A stretch of DNA of 35,452 bases from a virus (taxonomy: Duplodnaviria > Heunggongvirae > Uroviricota > Caudoviricetes). Made by a program: the position numbers and the translations under genes. The stretch is from the IMG/VR virus record IMGVR_UViG_2563366975_000004, one strand, 5' to 3'. Below the pieces are notes generated by a model. The model was not told where the DNA came from. It did no database searches and saw nothing but the letters and a program-made list of their open reading frames with translations. This document shows positions 16,405 to 35,452 of this stretch, in pieces (the first letter of the stretch is position 1; each line of letters begins with the position of its first letter).

Positions 16405-16785
16405 ATGACTGAACGCATAGAATTTGTTTTGCCTTACCCGCCAACGGTGAACACTTACTGGCGTCGTCGTGGCAGCACATATTTTGTATCAAAAGCCGGG
16501 GAGCGTTATCGCCGGGCAGTGGCGCTTATTGTTCGCCAGCAGCGGCTGAAATTAAGCCTGTCCGGAAGGTTGGCAATAAAAATTATTGCAGAACCACCGG
16601 ATAAGCGCCGCCGTGACCTGGACAATATTCTGAAAGCGCCGCTGGATGCGCTGACGCATGCGGGGTTGCTAATGGACGATGAGCAGTTTGATGAAATCAA
16701 TATCGTTCGTGGTCAGCCAGTATCTGGTGGACGTCTGGGGGTGAAGATTTACCCCATAATGCATGAAGAGCAGGTCAAAAAATGA
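16405..16785 (+). CDS. rusA: Holliday-junction resolvase RusA (126 aa)
   Basis: N-terminal FVLPYPPTVNTYW and acidic catalytic region RRRDLDN...D typical of RusA. Confidence 0.85.
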   Translation: MTERIEFVLPYPPTVNTYWRRRGSTYFVSKAGERYRRAVALIVRQQRLKLSLSGRLAIKIIAEPPDKRRRDLDNILKAPLDALTHAGLLMDDEQFDEINIVRGQPVSGGRLGVKIYPIMHEEQVKK

Positions 16786-26933: not shown

Positions 26934-26972
26934 AAAACCCCGTTTGTTGGCAGCAAGCGGGGTTTTGTTTTT
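26934..26972. terminator. Hairpin with flanking A- and T-runs (possible bidirectional terminator)
   Basis: aaaaccccg ... cggggtttt stem with about 15-nt loop, T-run downstream and A-run upstream. Confidence 0.4.
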
Positions 26973-28641: not shown

Positions 28642-29007
28642 ATGGCTGAGCTTCGTACACTCCAGAGCAGAATCAAAACACTGAATACCCGACGGGTGAA
28701 TATTCTGAAGGGGGAGCAGCGTCGTGTCAGTGGCAGTGCACGTGTTTCCCTCAAGCGTCATATCTGGCTGAGGGACGCCGGGCAGTGCTGTATCTGTGGT
28801 CGTGTGGTTGACCTCTGTGACAGTGAACTCGATCACCGAATTGCACTTCAGTTCGGTGGTGGTAATGAGGAGACGAATCTTTGGACGCTCTGTGCCGAAT
28901 GCCATCGACAAAAGTCTGCTCGTGAAGCGGCGAGTGGTATGCCGGACCCGACGCTGCCGGAGGTGTCCGGAGGTAGTGGCAGAGAGGACGACATCATCGG
29001 ACTGTAA
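28642..29007 (+). CDS. HNH endonuclease (121 aa), terminase-associated
   Basis: CxxC...DH...N...CxxCH arrangement (CCICGRVVDLCDSELDHRIALQFGGGNEETNLWTLCAECH); immediately upstream of cos-like region and terminase genes. Confidence 0.8.
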   Translation: MAELRTLQSRIKTLNTRRVNILKGEQRRVSGSARVSLKRHIWLRDAGQCCICGRVVDLCDSELDHRIALQFGGGNEETNLWTLCAECHRQKSAREAASGMPDPTLPEVSGGSGREDDIIGL

Positions 29008-29296: not shown

Positions 29297-29860
29297 GTGC
29301 TGACAACGCAAAAACGAAAATTTGCGCTGGCGCTCATGTCCGGGAAAAACAAAACAGCGTCAGCCATTGCCGCCGGTTATTCGGCGAAGACCGCCAGGGT
29401 TAAAGGCTCGCAGCTGGCAAAAGATCCGGAGGTGCTTGCGTTTATAGCCCGTAAACAATGCGAGACGGTGGAGGTGGATGAGGTTCCTGTTTACCGGCAG
29501 AAAAAATCAGAGCAGGAGGATAAACCCCGTCGCCGTGAGGCGGCTGCAATACCACAGCCGGACGAAAACAATCCGGAGATGCCACCGTCCGCGGTGATGT
29601 CTCCTGGTATTGAATATATGGAGGATGGTCTTCCCGATCCGGTGAAAGCCATGGGGCGGATCCTGGTGGAAAACCTCTGCATTGATCCGAAACTGGCACT
29701 GGATGCGGCCTGGCGTCTGGCGCAGTTCACGCACCATAAAAAAGGGGATACCGGGAAAAAATCGGCAAAAGGTGATGCCGCGAAAAAAGCGGCTAACCGT
29801 TTTGCGGTGCCACCGCCACCCCGACTGGTGGTGAATAACGATAATGAGGGCAACGGATGA
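29297..29860 (+). CDS. Terminase small subunit (187 aa, GTG start)
   Basis: GGGAGGAGG RBS; N-terminal HTH-like region; immediately upstream of large terminase. Confidence 0.7.
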   Translation: MLTTQKRKFALALMSGKNKTASAIAAGYSAKTARVKGSQLAKDPEVLAFIARKQCETVEVDEVPVYRQKKSEQEDKPRRREAAAIPQPDENNPEMPPSAVMSPGIEYMEDGLPDPVKAMGRILVENLCIDPKLALDAAWRLAQFTHHKKGDTGKKSAKGDAAKKAANRFAVPPPPRLVVNNDNEGNG

Positions 29861-31518
29861 TACCTGTATGGAGCACAGCCTGCCCGGACTGGGCAGAGCG
29901 CCTGAAAAAGGGGCTGTCGATTATTCCGGATCCGATTTATCCGGACGAGGCCGCACATGCCCTGGCGATTTTTAAACAACTGCGGATTGTGGATGCACCT
30001 GGTAGCCCTACGTTCGGGGAGTCCTGTGCACCGTGGGTGTTTGACCTGGTGGCGGCCCTGTTTGGCTCCTACGATGCGCAGACCGGTGTACGCCATATCA
30101 AGGAAGTTTTTATCCTTATCCCCAAGAAAAACTCGAAGTCCACGCTGGCCGCGGGGATCATGATGACTGCACTGTTACTGAACTGGCGGCAGGCGGCGGG
30201 TTACACGATTCTGGCCCCGACTGTGGAGGTGGCGGCCAACGCCTTCAACCCTGCCCGGGATATGGTACGACGTGACGATGATCTGGATGATCTCTGCCAG
30301 GTACAGACCCATATCCGGACCATCACCCACCGGGTGACAGACACCACCCTGAAGGTGGTGGCAGCCGATCCGAATACGGTGTCCGGTATCAAGTCCGTGG
30401 GTACGCTGATTGATGAGTTGTGGCTGTTTGGCAAGCAGTGCAAGGCGGAGGACATGTTACGTGAAGCCATAGGCGGCCTTGCCTCCCGCCCGGAAGGGTT
30501 TGTGGTGTATACGACCACCCAGTCGAATGAACCGCCCGCCGGGGTGTTCAGACAGAAACTGCAGTACGCCCGGGATGTGCGCGACGGCAAAATTCATGAT
30601 CCGCACTTTCTGCCGGTGATATTTGAACACCCTCCTGAAATGGTGGAAAGCGGGGCTCACCTGCTGATGGAAAACCTCGCCATGGTCAATCCTAATCTCG
30701 GCTATTCAGTGGATGAGGCCTTTCTGTACCGGGAGTACCGTAAAGCCCGGGAAGCCGGTGAAGAGACATTCCGGGGGTTCATGTCAAAACACGCCAATGT
30801 GGAAATTGGTCTTGCCCTGCGCTCTGACCGCTGGGCGGGGGCTGATTTCTGGGAAGAGCAGGGCCGTTGTATCAGCCTGGACGATATCCTGCGTCGTGCT
30901 GATGTGGTGACGGTGGGGATTGACGGCGGAGGGCTGGATGATCTGCTGGGGATGTATGTGATTGGGCGTGACCGGGAGACCCGCGAATGGCTGGGCTGGG
31001 GCCATGCCTGGGCGCATGAAACCGCGGTGGTCCGACGGAAGAGCGAGGCGTCCCGGTTTCAGGATCTTGTTGCCTGTGGAGATATGACCATTGTCCGGCG
31101 TGTCGGGGATGACACGGCGGAAGTGGCGGAATATGTGCGTCGCATTCATGAGGCTGAGTTACTGGACCATATCGGTATTGACCCGTCAGGGGTGGGGCAG
31201 ATTCTGGATTCACTGGCGGAAGCCGGGATCCCCGACGGAATTGTGGTGGGGATAAGCCAGGGCTGGAAACTGGGCGGGGCCATTAAAACCACCGAGCGCA
31301 AACTGGCTGAAGGGGTGCTGGTGCATGGTGACCAGCCCCTGATGGCCTGGTGTGTCGGCAATGCCCGGGTGGAGCCTAAAGGTAACGCCATTCTTATCAC
31401 CAAACAGGCCAGTGGACGGGGAAAAATTGACCCGCTGATGGCGCTGTTCAATGCGGTCTCCCTGATGTCCCTTAACCCGGAACCGAAAAAGAAAGAATAT
31501 GCGGTTTTTTTCATATAA
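29857..31518 (+). CDS. Terminase large subunit (553 aa)
   Basis: Walker A-like ILIPKKNSKST and acidic nuclease-domain region; size and position typical of TerL. Confidence 0.85.
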   Translation: MIPVWSTACPDWAERLKKGLSIIPDPIYPDEAAHALAIFKQLRIVDAPGSPTFGESCAPWVFDLVAALFGSYDAQTGVRHIKEVFILIPKKNSKSTLAAGIMMTALLLNWRQAAGYTILAPTVEVAANAFNPARDMVRRDDDLDDLCQVQTHIRTITHRVTDTTLKVVAADPNTVSGIKSVGTLIDELWLFGKQCKAEDMLREAIGGLASRPEGFVVYTTTQSNEPPAGVFRQKLQYARDVRDGKIHDPHFLPVIFEHPPEMVESGAHLLMENLAMVNPNLGYSVDEAFLYREYRKAREAGEETFRGFMSKHANVEIGLALRSDRWAGADFWEEQGRCISLDDILRRADVVTVGIDGGGLDDLLGMYVIGRDRETREWLGWGHAWAHETAVVRRKSEASRFQDLVACGDMTIVRRVGDDTAEVAEYVRRIHEAELLDHIGIDPSGVGQILDSLAEAGIPDGIVVGISQGWKLGGAIKTTERKLAEGVLVHGDQPLMAWCVGNARVEPKGNAILITKQASGRGKIDPLMALFNAVSLMSLNPEPKKKEYAVFFI

Positions 31519-31543
31519 CCCTGTTCACACTGTAACCATCACG

Positions 31544-31568
31544 AACCGCTCCGGCGGTTTTTTTATTT
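31544..31568 (+). terminator. Hairpin plus T-run between terminase and capsid genes
   Basis: aaccgc-tccg-gcggtt followed by a run of T; directly upstream of the AGGAGG RBS of the next gene. Confidence 0.45.
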
Positions 31569-31581
31569 TCAGGAGGCTGAT

Positions 31582-33519
31582 GTGACTCTTAAACGGGCCT
31601 GTTCCCTGCTGACGGTGAAATCCTTCAGTGAGGATGAACGAGTGATCACCGGGATTGCGTCAACGCCTTCTCCGGATCGGGATGGTGACATCCTGGAGCC
31701 GGAGGGCGCGGAGTTTGGCAGTGCGATCCCGTTTCTCTGGCAGCATGACCATTCCCGCCCGGTGGGGCAGTGTACGGTGCGCCGGGTCAGCGAAGGGCTG
31801 GAAATCACGGCAACACTGGTGAAGCCCGTACCGGATATGCCGTCGCAACTGGCTGCCCGGCTGGATGAGGTCTGGGCGGCCATTAAGACCGGGCTGGTCA
31901 GGGGGCTGTCCGTGGGCTTCCGTCCCCATGAATACACCTTTCTGGACGGAGGCGGACTGCATTTTCTGCGCTGGGAACTGATGGAGGTGTCTGCCGTCAC
32001 CGTGCCCGCGAATGCGGAATGCACCATCCGGACCATTAAATCTTACGACCGCCCGTTTTCTGCCGCGTCCGGCAACCGGAAACCGGTGGTGAAAATCGCA
32101 TCTTCTGCCGGCGCTGCGGCACAGTCAACAACCGTTTTTCATAAGGAAAAGACCATAATGAATATTGGCGAACAGATTAAAAGTTTTGAAAACAAGCGTG
32201 CAGCGCTGGCAGCCTCCCTTGAGGAGGTCATGACCAAAGCCGCAGAGGAAGGGCGCACGCTGGATGTGGAGGAGGAAGAGCATTACGACAACACCGCAGC
32301 GGAAATCCGTCAGGTGGATGCGCACCTGAAGCGCCTGCGTGAACTGGAAGCCGGTAAGGCCGCCACGGCGCAGCCGGTGAAACAGGCCGGTAACGGGAAT
32401 GTGGCCGCGGTGGCTTCTGCGCCGGTGATCCGTGTGGAGCAGAAACTGGATAAGGGGATTGGCTTCGCCCGCTTTGCCAAATCGCTGGCTGCGGCTAAAG
32501 GCGTCCGATCTGAAGCCCTGGAAGTGGCCCGTCGTCAGTATCCGGATGACAGTCGTCTGCATCATGTCCTGAAATCGGCAGTGGGCGCGGGGACCACCAC
32601 GGATCCGCAGTGGGCAGGCAGCCTGTCTGAATATCAGGAATACGCACAGGACTTTATTGATTACCTGCGTCCGCAGACCATTATCGGGCGATTTGGTCAG
32701 GGCGGGATCCCTGCACTTCGTCAGGTGCCGTTCAATATCCGTGTGCACGCCCAGGTGTCCGGCGGTGCTGCCGGCTGGGTGGGTGAGGGTAAGGCAAAAC
32801 CCCTGACGAAGTTTGATTTTGAATCCATCACCTTCAGTCATGCGAAGGTGTCGGCCATTGCGGTACTGACGGAAGAATTGATCCGTTTTTCCAGTCCGGC
32901 TGCTGATGCACTGGTCCGTAATGCGCTGGCGGAAGCGGTGGTGGCGCGTCTGGATACAGACTTTGTGGACCCGAAAAAAGCCGCAGTGGCAGATGTCTCC
33001 CCGGCGTCCATCACCCATGATGTGAAGGGCACGGCATCAACCGGTAACCCGGATGCGGATGCAGAGGCTGCGTTTGGACAGTTTGTGGCAGCAAACCTGC
33101 AGCCCACCGGTGCGGTCTGGCTGATGTCCAGCACCAATGCCCTGGCACTGTCCATGCGTAAAAATGCGCTGGGTCAGAAGGAATACCCGGACATGACCCT
33201 GCTGGGTGGCTCCTTCCAGGGGCTGCCGGTGATTGTCTCCCAGTACGTGGGTGACCAGCTGGTGCTGGTGAATGCCCCGGATATTTATCTGGCGGATGAC
33301 GGCGGCGTGGCAGTGGATATGTCCCGCGAGGCATCACTGGAAATGCAGTCTGAGCCGGGCGGCGACAGTACCACGCCGTCCCCGGTGGAGCTGGTTTCCA
33401 TGTTCCAGACAGGCAGCGTGGCCATCCGTGCGGAGCGCTGGATCAACTGGCGTCGTCGCCGTACCGCGGCGGTGGCGGTGATCACCGGAGTGAACTACGG
33501 CAGTGCGTCCGGCGGCTGA
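31582..33519 (+). CDS. Prohead protease - scaffold - major capsid protein fusion, HK97-like (645 aa)
   Basis: N-terminal HK97-protease-like motif (GIAS...DRDGDILEPEGAEFG...PFLWQHD...PVG), central coiled-coil linker, C-terminal HK97-fold capsid-like region. Confidence 0.7.
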   Translation: MTLKRACSLLTVKSFSEDERVITGIASTPSPDRDGDILEPEGAEFGSAIPFLWQHDHSRPVGQCTVRRVSEGLEITATLVKPVPDMPSQLAARLDEVWAAIKTGLVRGLSVGFRPHEYTFLDGGGLHFLRWELMEVSAVTVPANAECTIRTIKSYDRPFSAASGNRKPVVKIASSAGAAAQSTTVFHKEKTIMNIGEQIKSFENKRAALAASLEEVMTKAAEEGRTLDVEEEEHYDNTAAEIRQVDAHLKRLRELEAGKAATAQPVKQAGNGNVAAVASAPVIRVEQKLDKGIGFARFAKSLAAAKGVRSEALEVARRQYPDDSRLHHVLKSAVGAGTTTDPQWAGSLSEYQEYAQDFIDYLRPQTIIGRFGQGGIPALRQVPFNIRVHAQVSGGAAGWVGEGKAKPLTKFDFESITFSHAKVSAIAVLTEELIRFSSPAADALVRNALAEAVVARLDTDFVDPKKAAVADVSPASITHDVKGTASTGNPDADAEAAFGQFVAANLQPTGAVWLMSSTNALALSMRKNALGQKEYPDMTLLGGSFQGLPVIVSQYVGDQLVLVNAPDIYLADDGGVAVDMSREASLEMQSEPGGDSTTPSPVELVSMFQTGSVAIRAERWINWRRRRTAAVAVITGVNYGSASGG

Positions 33520-33563
33520 GTCTGATAAGGAGGACGGGAGGCGTGCGCCTCCCGTAACAGGTT

Positions 33564-33785
33564 ATGGCAAAGATCCGATATCTGCAGGGCACGCATGATG
33601 CCCGGGCCGGGGATATCCGTGATGTGGCACAGCCGTGTGCGGAGGTGCTGGTTCGCCTGGGAAAGGCGGAGTACATCACGGTGCGACGTCCGGCAGGTCA
33701 GAAAAAGAAACGTGATGCGGAGCATGGCGAATGTGGAACCTTTTACGGCGAACCCGAAAAAACCAGAAATCAGGACGTGACGTAA
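33564..33785 (+). CDS. Hypothetical small protein (73 aa)
   Basis: ORF between capsid and portal genes; overlaps portal start in another frame; weak. Confidence 0.3.
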   Translation: MAKIRYLQGTHDARAGDIRDVAQPCAEVLVRLGKAEYITVRRPAGQKKKRDAEHGECGTFYGEPEKTRNQDVT

Positions 33786-35452
33786 GAGAGGCGGGCTGGA
33801 CCAGCCTGTTTCAGGCGGTGGCTGAGCCCTTTTCCGGCGCCTGGCAGCAGGGCGTGAAAGCCGATCCTGAAGCCGTCCTCTCCTTTCATGCGGTGTTTGC
33901 ATGTATTTCGCTGATATCCCAGGATATCGCCAAAATGCGGCTGCGTCTTATGCAGACGGATGCGCATGGGATACGCAGGGAAACGCGCCGGGGGGATATT
34001 GCCCGCCTCTGTCGTCGTCCCAACGCCCAGCAGAACCGCATCCAGTTTTTTGAACTGTGGCTGAACGCCAAACTGCGTCACGGCAATACGGTGGTGCTGA
34101 AAATCCGTAATGCCCGGGGGCAGATCAAAGAACTGCGTATTCTGGACTGGAGCCGGGTTGAACCTCTGGTGGCGGATGACGGCGAGGTGTTCTACCGCAT
34201 CACGCCGGACCGGAACTGCGGGATCACGGAGGCGGTGACGGTGCCTGCCCGGGAAGTGATCCACGACCGGTTTAACTGTTTTTTTCATCCGCTTATAGGA
34301 TTGCCGCCGGTGTATGCCGCCGGGCTGGCGGCCACGCAGGGGCATCATATTCAGGAAAATTCGACGTCTTTTTTCAGAAATGGTGGCAGGCCGTCCGGGG
34401 TGATTGAGATCCCCGGCAGTATTACGGAAGAAAATGCGAAAAAACTGAAGAGCAACTGGGACAGCGGGTATACAGGCGAAAATGCGGGGAAAACGGCCAT
34501 TCTGAGCAACGGGGCAAAATACAACCCCACGACGTTTTCACCTGTGGATGCGCAGACGGTGGAACAACTGAAGATGACCGCTGAAATTGTCTGTTCGGTG
34601 TTCCGTGTCCCGGCCTACAAGATTGGCGTGGGACAACCGCCTTCCAGTGACAACGTGGAGGCGCTGGAGCAGCAGTATTATTCCCAGTGCCTGCAGACGC
34701 TGATTGAGTCCATTGAACTGTTACTGGATGAGGCGCTGGAAACGGGGGAAAACGAGAGTACAGAATTTGATGTCACCACGCTGCTGAGAATGGACAGTGA
34801 GCGGCGCATGAAAACGCTGGGGGATGCGGTGAAAAATACGCTTCTCACGCCCAATGAGGCCCGTAAACGGGAGAACCTGCCGCCCCTGGCCGGCGGTGAT
34901 GCACTGTATCTTCAGCAGCAGAACTACAGTCTGGAGGCGCTGTCCCGTCGTGATGCCCGTGAGGATCCGTTCTCGTCTGCCGGGAAAACAGTTTCATCAC
35001 AGCTGCCTGACGGCGCATCTGACGGTAATAAGGCAATCAGTGAAACAGAGCATGATGCGGTGAAAGCGATGTTCAGGGGGGATACTGAGAAAATGACGGA
35101 ACGGGAACTGTCCATTATTCGTGCACTGGGAGAAGAATTCTCCACAGTGCTGGCGGATTTACAGCGCACATTTGAGGGGAAGATGGCCTCGCAGGCACAA
35201 GCGTTTGAAGAGAAACTGACTTCCCTGTCGGCGGTATTACAGAAGCATGTGACGGTGGATGAGGTGCGTCCGGTTCTGCAGGCGATGGTGGATGACGCTG
35301 TGGGGGCCATTCCGGTACCGCGTGATGGTCGTGATTATGATCCGGATGTACTGCAGCAGGCGGTGAATGATGCGGTCGCAAATATTCCGCAGCCGGCGGA
35401 CGGTAAAAGTCTCACCCCGGATGATGTGCGTCCGATGCTTGAACAGATGGTG
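33731..35452 (+). CDS. Portal protein, HK97-family (partial; continues beyond window end)
   Basis: Open frame by hand translation from ATG near 33731 to the window edge with no stop; contains portal-like block FFRNGGRPSGVIEIPG...NWDSGYTGENAGKTAILSNGAKY...EIVCSVFRVPAYKIGV; absent from ORF track because unterminated. Confidence 0.7.
   Translation, partial: MWNLLRRTRKNQKSGRDVREAGWTSLFQAVAEPFSGAWQQGVKADPEAVLSFHAVFACISLISQDIAKMRLRLMQTDAHGIRRETRRGDIARLCRRPNAQQNRIQFFELWLNAKLRHGNTVVLKIRNARGQIKELRILDWSRVEPLVADDGEVFYRITPDRNCGITEAVTVPAREVIHDRFNCFFHPLIGLPPVYAAGLAATQGHHIQENSTSFFRNGGRPSGVIEIPGSITEENAKKLKSNWDSGYTGENAGKTAILSNGAKYNPTTFSPVDAQTVEQLKMTAEIVCSVFRVPAYKIGVGQPPSSDNVEALEQQYYSQCLQTLIESIELLLDEALETGENESTEFDVTTLLRMDSERRMKTLGDAVKNTLLTPNEARKRENLPPLAGGDALYLQQQNYSLEALSRRDAREDPFSSAGKTVSSQLPDGASDGNKAISETEHDAVKAMFRGDTEKMTERELSIIRALGEEFSTVLADLQRTFEGKMASQAQAFEEKLTSLSAVLQKHVTVDEVRPVLQAMVDDAVGAIPVPRDGRDYDPDVLQQAVNDAVANIPQPADGKSLTPDDVRPMLEQMV

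Follow-up and report, generated by a model that had tools for sequence, protein, structure and literature searches.

We analyzed a 35,452-nucleotide (nt) stretch of DNA from a tailed phage (Caudoviricetes; IMG/VR virus record IMGVR_UViG_2563366975_000004), the whole of which is called the window here, focusing on a 645-amino-acid (aa) gene that an earlier, sequence-only reading had described as a protease–scaffold–capsid fusion lying before the portal gene and flanked by two hairpins. The window is a lambdoid Escherichia coli prophage of the phage 2851/BP-4795 type. The genes and elements at the locus are as follows (positions are those of the window; ORF, open reading frame).

29857..31518, + strand: gene for the terminase large subunit (TerL), directly 5′ of the fusion gene; Pfam TerL_ATPase and TerL_nuclease, labeled "terminase large subunit" in identical records
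31543..31569, + strand: hairpin 1, intrinsic-terminator-like; stem 31543-31549/31554-31560 of 7 pairs, UCCG loop, then T7-A-T4
31582..33519, + strand: protease–scaffold–capsid fusion gene, 645 aa; GTG start, Shine-Dalgarno AGGAGG at 31571-31576
31723..32037, + strand: HK97-type prohead protease domain (Pfam Peptidase_S78, aa 48-152)
32143..32160, + strand: predicted internal translation-initiation region (AAGGA, 32143-32147; ATG of Met-193, 32158-32160)
32164..32364, + strand: delta-domain-like helical scaffold segment (aa 195-261; AlphaFold helices and profile match)
32737..33486, + strand: HK97-family capsid protein core (Pfam Phage_capsid PF05065, aa 386-635)
33527..33533, + strand: Shine-Dalgarno (AAGGAGG) of the 73-aa ORF, upstream of hairpin 2
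33534..33555, + strand: hairpin 2; perfect 10-nt inverted repeat (33534-33543/33546-33555), 9-bp GC-rich stem with a GUGC loop
33564-33785, + strand: small ORF, 73 aa (PHROG 829, E 3.7e-39)
33731..35452, + strand: portal gene, running off the window end (Pfam Phage_portal PF04860; start from the RefSeq annotation; 861 aa in identical genomes)

Protease, scaffold, and capsid parts of the fusion gene

The N-terminal part of the 645-aa protein matched Peptidase_S78 with 34.7 bits (Pfam cut-off, 21). HK97 gp4 aligned with this part at 29% identity (E 4e-9), and the homology extended across aa 21-156. Ser-114 of gp4 aligned with Ser-110, and His-65 of gp4 lay one column off His-55, beside an 8-residue gap; we take these two gp4 residues to be the catalytic residues of the HK97 protease. 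His-55, Ser-110, and Glu-135 were unchanged in 16 divergent sequences, down to 33% identity. By these matches, the N-terminal domain is an S78-type prohead protease, and proteolysis that matures the prohead is predicted for it.

The C-terminal part matched Phage_capsid PF05065 with 52.7 bits (Pfam cut-off, 24.2), and positions 389-627 of the family profile aligned with the solved capsid proteins 9d9w (E 1.5e-12) and 8gta (E 5.8e-8). The best part of the AlphaFold model consisted of two long helices at aa 195-222 and 229-261, predicted with moderate confidence (predicted local distance difference test score [pLDDT] ~76), and profile positions 199-271 aligned with N-terminal residues 3-73 of the solved major head protein 9gyi_B, suggesting that the middle of the protein is a delta-domain-like scaffold joined to the capsid protein. 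These results support a helical scaffold segment, whose removal by the protease at maturation is predicted only.

Among the phage protein families, PHROG 617 ("major head protein") covered the fused protein end to end, and a weak match was obtained with PHROG 4523, "major head and protease protein" (E 1.7e-11). The GenBank label of the gene in matching records is "major head protein/prohead protease". Thousands of full-length copies, identical or related, rule out an artefact or a pseudogene. Together, the domain assignments confirm the three-part composition proposed in the sequence-only reading and identify 31582..33519 as an in-frame join of an HK97-type serine protease gene and a capsid gene with its own delta-like scaffold.

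Gene order and distribution of the fused module

Homologues of ~645 aa were found in Salmonella, Enterobacter, Klebsiella, Serratia, Pantoea, and others. A scan with one genome per species also detected fused copies in alpha-proteobacteria (Rhizobium, Methylobacterium, Brucella, and Haematobacter) and in beta-proteobacteria (Candidimonas and a Burkholderiaceae genome). Among the best 150 representatives of 50%-identity clusters, 139 were fused. Separate protease and capsid genes were found at four loci (Diaphorobacter, a second Brucella prophage, and two Snodgrassella strains). At a Parasphingorhabdus locus (L036 5001-6427), the two parts stand in reversed order on one strand, the capsid-like part (query aa 309-636) being upstream and the protease-like part (aa 3-156) downstream, which may reflect a rearrangement or two neighboring remnants.

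The placement of the fusion between TerL and the portal gene was borne out by the TerL gene upstream and by the last ORF of the window, which in its full-length form from an identical genome matched Phage_portal over aa 54-382 (E 6e-81; 272.6 bits vs 39.1). With the portal match falling in the last ORF, the opposite assignment, in which the 645-aa protein would be the portal and the last ORF the capsid protein, does not hold. The sequence-only reading had contrasted this placement with one after the portal gene, but the view that it is out of the ordinary was not supported: the order TerL, fusion, (small ORF), portal was kept in gamma-, beta-, and alpha-proteobacteria at the loci with detectable flanking genes. 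A large and old prophage family has TerL, protease–capsid, portal as its fixed order, and in E. coli the module ranks with the most common ones. The head module is thus not rare but already known and very abundant, and "major capsid and protease fusion protein" is an existing annotation class for actinophages.

A conserved candidate start codon within the fusion gene

The capsid gene started at the exact equivalent of Met-193 of the fused protein at all four two-gene loci, and five stand-alone capsid representatives also began at this position. Met-193 was invariant, although it adjoins a hypervariable, indel-rich linker. A start codon was found at the site in 26 of 26 fused lineages (ATG in 24, GTG in one, and TTG in one), preceded in most of them by AAGGA or a stronger Shine-Dalgarno. 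Across the 139 fused representatives, Met occupied the site in 114 (82%), compared with 14% expected by chance.

The codon usage and the predicted RNA structure around this site were also unusual. The linker Gly codon that forms part of the Shine-Dalgarno motif was GGA in 19 of 21 cases, whereas GGA made up only 17 of 260 codons (6.5%) at ten invariant Gly columns of the same genes, a bias that is a nucleotide-level constraint. The internal-start region was predicted to be unusually unpaired, with 16 of the 26 lineages placing it among the top 10% of positions within the gene. Together, these results indicate that the start codon and Shine-Dalgarno of the ancestral capsid gene are retained within the fused ORF. 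The gene is probably nested, with a full-length protease–scaffold–capsid protein translated from 31582 and a scaffold–capsid protein from 32158.

Several observations weigh against an internal start. Met was missing from the site in 25 of the 139 fused representatives, some of which had Val or Leu and about ten of which had neither, suggesting that the internal start is not indispensable. The internal Shine-Dalgarno was moderate in most lineages (about −5.6 kcal/mol, ~5th-15th percentile of the in-gene background) and weaker than the AGGAGG of the full-length start. In addition, the conservation of Lys-Gly-x-x-Met could be due in part to a protease cleavage site rather than to RNA signals. In an alternative scheme, the 645-aa protein is the only product and each shell subunit carries its own protease, which is trimmed off after assembly; the conserved Met and the purine-rich linker would then be left over from the ancestral gene junction or belong to a cleavage site. 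The stronger Shine-Dalgarno at the full-length start and the lack of Met at the site in about 10-18% of the fused cluster representatives are in keeping with this single-product scheme, as is our own estimate that the interior of a T=7 shell has room for 415 protease-plus-scaffold moieties. A working fusion of such a kind is cited for the Salmonella phage Gifsy-2, whose fused protease/coat gene is known as a "tripartite capsid gene" (Effantin et al. 2010, Virology 402:355, as cited by later papers). Conversely, selection on the protein leaves the GGA bias unexplained, the internal-start region is unusually unstructured, and the Met is kept beside the hypervariable linker down to 33-50% identity. 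We consider it rather unlikely that the full-length protein is the sole product.

A −1 frameshift that would yield the protease alone (T5 at 32135-32139, followed by a −1-frame TAA at 32142) was rejected: the T-run was missing in relatives, and the two-gene relatives have ordinary stop/start junctions. A literature search found no description of the hairpins or of an internal start for this capsid family.

A terminator-like hairpin before the fusion gene

Both hairpins noticed in the sequence-only reading are present, the repeat of hairpin 2 being one base wider on each side than given there. Since alignments made with MAFFT were not structure-consistent across distant lineages, their conservation was judged by per-lineage folding with shuffled and coding-region controls instead of by formal covariation counts. 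Terminator-like patterns as a class were not above chance in the region (11 found vs 8.8 expected); it is the conservation in relatives that makes both hairpins more than chance features.

Hairpin 1 has the sequence hallmarks of an intrinsic terminator, a stem-loop with a UNCG-type loop followed by a U-run, and ends 2 nt before the AGGAGG of the fusion gene. The 51 nt from 31530 to 31580 were predicted to form this hairpin plus another small helix, which covers the AGGAGG region (−13.8 kcal/mol, z = −1.84). The element was present in 16 of 16 Enterobacterales lineages with varying stems and loops, and also in the beta-proteobacterial Diaphorobacter, Burkholderiaceae genome, Snodgrassella, and Candidimonas. 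Across lineages it consisted of 6-9 pairs, a stable tetraloop (UCCG, UGCG, UUCG, CACG, and others), T5-T7, and then AGGAGG. Hairpin 1 is thus a conserved intrinsic-terminator-like element and a putative terminator. A near-copy was seen in the same prophage past the window end (L001 26410-26450), before the major tail subunit gene; it reads CCCCGC-CGCGU-GCGGG, then U6-AUUAUC, then AGGAGG.

The sequence-only reading had proposed that passing the two hairpins would need antitermination and that they may tune the expression of capsid versus portal. The first proposal is reasonable for hairpin 1, which is terminator-like, since the window contains a late antiterminator gene that makes read-through plausible by analogy with lambda; hairpin 2 has no U-tract.

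16782..17603, + strand: Q-type late antiterminator gene (Pfam Antiterm PF03589, E 7.8e-51)

The second proposal fails for hairpin 1, which lies upstream of both the capsid and the portal genes and so cannot set their ratio. By analogy, the most economical reading of hairpin 1 would be an insulator that keeps non-antiterminated transcription off the most strongly translated structural genes.

The only Rfam match obtained for 31000-34500 was isrK (RF01394) at 31479-31564, which takes in a hairpin in the 3′ end of terL as well as hairpin 1. On this basis, hairpin 1 could be imagined as the terminator of an isrK-like, Hfq-binding small RNA that originates in the 3′ end of the terminase mRNA, with two hairpins and a U-tail. 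The score (18.1 bits) was far under the gathering threshold of 50 bits, the match was mostly to a generic terminator, and no promoter-like site was found on the + strand. An origin of this kind is very improbable.

A hairpin in a putative split ribosome-binding site

No other perfect, closely spaced inverted repeat in the window is as long as hairpin 2, which folds at −22.4 kcal/mol (z = −2.65). No U-run was found 3′ of it, the stem being followed by AACAGGTTATG, and the post-capsid hairpin likewise lacked a U-tract in 14 of 15 Enterobacterales lineages. A strong GC-rich hairpin was found 5-25 nt past the capsid stop codon in all 29 lineages, although the sequences were unrelated; its median z was −2.9, and 23 of the 29 were below −2, compared with a median of −0.27 and 7 of 87 for coding controls.

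The position of the hairpin relative to the next gene was also conserved. The window, 14 of 15 Enterobacterales lineages, all 14 E. coli variants, and HK97 shared the arrangement GGAGG, hairpin, 7-9 nt, ATG, with nothing Shine-Dalgarno-like between stem and ATG in any of these sets. Among the E. coli variants was a compensatory change of the outer pair of hairpin 2 from A-T to G-C. Folding of the stem would cut the spacing between Shine-Dalgarno and AUG from 24-30 nt to 7-11 nt (from about 30 to 8 nt here). This geometry resembles the split translation-initiation regions of phage T4 genes 38 and 25, which were proven by mutation and structure probing and in which a hairpin cuts the spacing from 22 to 5 nt and from 27 to 11 nt, respectively. 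The T4 sequences and genes are unrelated to those of the window, where it is the geometry that is conserved. Hairpin 2 is thus a candidate split initiation region of the T4 gene 25/38 type, from which stem-dependent translation is predicted.

Because it has no U-tract, hairpin 2 is not a canonical terminator, and canonical termination there is unlikely; its conserved place between Shine-Dalgarno and AUG points to a role in translation or mRNA stability instead. A scheme in which both hairpins act as terminators or attenuators, with partial read-through setting the capsid-to-portal mRNA ratio, would be in line with the terminator hallmarks of hairpin 1, with the annotation of the HK97 equivalents as putative terminators, and with the T-run that follows the post-capsid hairpin in several beta- and alpha-proteobacterial relatives and in Rouxiella. 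There is also a precedent in phage T7, which has a partial terminator right after its capsid gene. This scheme nonetheless meets three difficulties: termination at hairpin 1 would leave the ratio untouched and lower capsid expression, a U-tract is missing from hairpin 2 in the window and in nearly all Enterobacterales lineages, and a Q gene is present in the window, Q-modified polymerase being terminator-resistant through the whole late operon in lambda. Control of the mRNA ratio by termination at the two hairpins is improbable.

Alternatively, hairpin 2 might be only a barrier to 3′-to-5′ exonucleases that makes the capsid message longer-lived than those of downstream genes, the adjacent Shine-Dalgarno being incidental. 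Intercistronic hairpins classically stabilize upstream mRNA, as in the REP elements of malE-malF and in the puf operon, and the hairpin occurs in all 29 lineages, even where the next Shine-Dalgarno lies downstream of it. Conversely, in Enterobacterales and HK97 the next gene has its sole Shine-Dalgarno directly beside the stem, on the 5′ side, and the distance from stem to ATG is fixed at 7-9 nt despite differing sequences, with no Shine-Dalgarno in between. We regard a barrier function as the only role of hairpin 2 as possible but doubtful. The two roles are compatible and non-exclusive; stabilization of the 3′ end of the capsid message suits hairpin 2 equally well and is probably its older function. 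A lowering of portal relative to capsid expression by hairpin 2 is plausible.

A hairpin-bracketed cassette apparently shared with HK97

Phage HK97 resembles the window in several respects. Its gp4 is an S78-type protease like that of the window, with the catalytic Ser aligned, and also has a GTG start; its gp5 carries the scaffold (delta domain) at the N terminus of the capsid protein, as in the window. A terminator-like hairpin with a U-run lies directly 5′ of the HK97 protease gene, again as in the window. After the HK97 capsid gene, the sequence TGA-tGGAGG-GGGCGGG-GAAA-CCCGCCC-TTTTAACGT-ATG leads into gp6 with the same layout as here. The HK97 GenBank record marks putative terminators just before gp4 and just after gp5, and the HK97 major tail gene is bracketed by putative terminators as well.

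The two phages also differ. In HK97, the protease and capsid genes are separate, 2 nt apart, and both are downstream of the portal gene. The hairpin is followed by a head–tail adaptor gene in HK97 and by the 73-aa ORF in the window, and the capsid parts were not detectably similar by BLAST (E 0.31). These comparisons suggest that the window and HK97 have in common a cassette made up of hairpin, protease, capsid, and hairpin. If the bracketed cassette is exchangeable, this would explain its placement on either side of the portal gene. We put at about even chances the stronger proposition that this is both a true two-start nested gene that includes the coat protein and a self-contained, exchangeable cassette shared with HK97.

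Gifsy-2 is another parallel. Its protease is reportedly ClpP/lambda-C-like rather than S78, and its head module is said to be lambda-like, with the portal gene upstream and a decoration protein.

The nested arrangement itself has counterparts in lambda C/Nu3, herpes simplex virus 1 UL26/UL26.5, and gp17/gp17.5 of the archaeal virus HFTV1, in each of which an in-frame internal start yields a shorter, more abundant assembly protein that shares its C terminus with the protease-bearing full-length protein. In these three systems the coat protein has its own gene and the short product is just a scaffold, whereas the short product of the window would be scaffold plus coat.

A proposed scheme for expression of the head genes

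Taken as a whole, the scheme that we favor, and hold to be somewhat more likely than not, is a two-start fused ORF within a hairpin-bracketed cassette, in which hairpin 1 would be a terminator read through with the help of Q and hairpin 2 a split ribosome-binding site. Translation from GTG 31582 would produce the full-length protease–scaffold–capsid protein, which would co-assemble into the shell and so bring the protease inside, while translation from ATG 32158 (Met-193) would produce the scaffold–capsid protein as the bulk of the shell subunits. After assembly, the protease would cut off itself and the scaffold. This would be the nested logic of lambda C/Nu3 and herpesvirus UL26/UL26.5, widened to the coat protein.

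Both hairpins would have been inherited along with the cassette. Hairpin 1 would stop ordinary polymerase as an intrinsic terminator and serve as an insulator in the lysogen; Q-modified late transcription would pass it, and its U-tract would lead straight into the strong Shine-Dalgarno. Hairpin 2 would loop out 22 nt, reducing the spacing between Shine-Dalgarno and AUG of the 73-aa ORF from 30 to 8 nt, and possibly also shield the 3′ end of the capsid message. Translation of the portal gene would follow on from the 73-aa ORF via their overlap.

Three further findings sit less comfortably with this scheme. Hairpin 1 was absent from ten alpha-proteobacterial lineages by per-lineage folding (z about 0). 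The beta- and alpha-proteobacterial relatives carry the Shine-Dalgarno of the next gene 3′ of hairpin 2, suggesting that the split arrangement is derived and that the older role of hairpin 2 was that of a terminator or stabilizer. Finally, the AlphaFold model of the fusion was poor, with a mean pLDDT of 40.6 from a 13-sequence alignment and values below 50 over aa 337-645.

The sequence-only reading had missed both the conserved 73-aa ORF and the internal start. The additions made here, a predicted conserved internal start and a hairpin-bracketed cassette seemingly common to HK97, are modest, and current views of phage assembly are unchanged by them. If the internal start is used, the main capsid subunit is a separate product that current annotations lack, and the gene would offer a simple genetic system for studying how the ratio of protease to coat is set. 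A true two-start gene would mean that the principle of lambda C/Nu3 and UL26/UL26.5 reaches the coat protein itself. The hairpin bracket shared with HK97 would be a small, testable case in which lambdoid phages adjust the output of their most abundant structural proteins inside one antiterminated operon.

The 73-aa ORF and the portal gene

In the 73-aa ORF, a basic tail follows a conserved 37-aa core, MAKIRYLQxTHDxxxGDxxxVxxxCAxVLVxLGKAEY, and homologues were found in Enterobacterales and Snodgrassella. Its third codon positions vary about twice as much as the first and second. By this pattern of conservation, the 73-aa ORF is a real gene. Pfam, PDB, and profile searches gave no match for it, a homologue search returned only "hypothetical protein" entries, all from E. 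coli, and AlphaFold yielded no usable fold (pLDDT 54). The end of the 73-aa ORF overlaps the start of the portal gene, suggesting that the two are translationally coupled.

The portal protein (L001 22332-24917) has a C-terminal extension of ~480 aa past the Pfam portal domain, for which PDB and Pfam searches gave no explaining match. The extension contains a 162-nt (54-aa) tandem repeat in 3.3 copies with 95% identity (L001 23919-24451, corresponding to window position 35318 onward), which starts within the last 135 nt of the window. A gp6-like connector gene comes after the portal gene.

Prophage context and abundance

Many E. coli chromosomes matched the region 31400-35452 at 100% identity; for Enterobacteria phage 2851 (genus Pankowvirus) the identity was 99.7%, and for BP-4795, YYZ-2008, and many Stx1/Stx2-converting phages it was 96-98%. 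Of 5426 complete E. coli genomes, 1255 contained a match, at a median of 3 and a maximum of 15 places per genome. Roughly one in four complete E. coli genomes thus carries the head module, often more than once, and it is also found in long-tailed Shiga-toxin phages, so that a correct gene structure for it would improve the annotation of very many genomes.

Two further genes precede TerL, both assigned from ORFs and Pfam matches.

28642-29007: HNH endonuclease gene
29297-29860: gene for the terminase small subunit (TerS)

An IS21-family element (21661-23912, − strand; IstA-like protein of 499 aa and IstB of 251 aa) lies between the Q gene and the lysis genes and disrupts a DUF1737/DUF6645 gene (20964-21770 and 24067-25251). 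The late operon of this copy is thereby interrupted, and the prophage may be defective. Another terminator-like hairpin on the + strand (26934-26966; 15 pairs and a T-run) lies within the late operon just 3′ of the lysozyme gene, a further site for late transcription to read through.

Many complete E. coli chromosome records (e.g., NZ_CP049118.1 and NZ_CP048934.1) open at the terL start codon of this prophage, position 29857, so that the query start at 31400 falls at position 1544 of the record. This probably came about as a by-product when the assemblies were re-oriented automatically.

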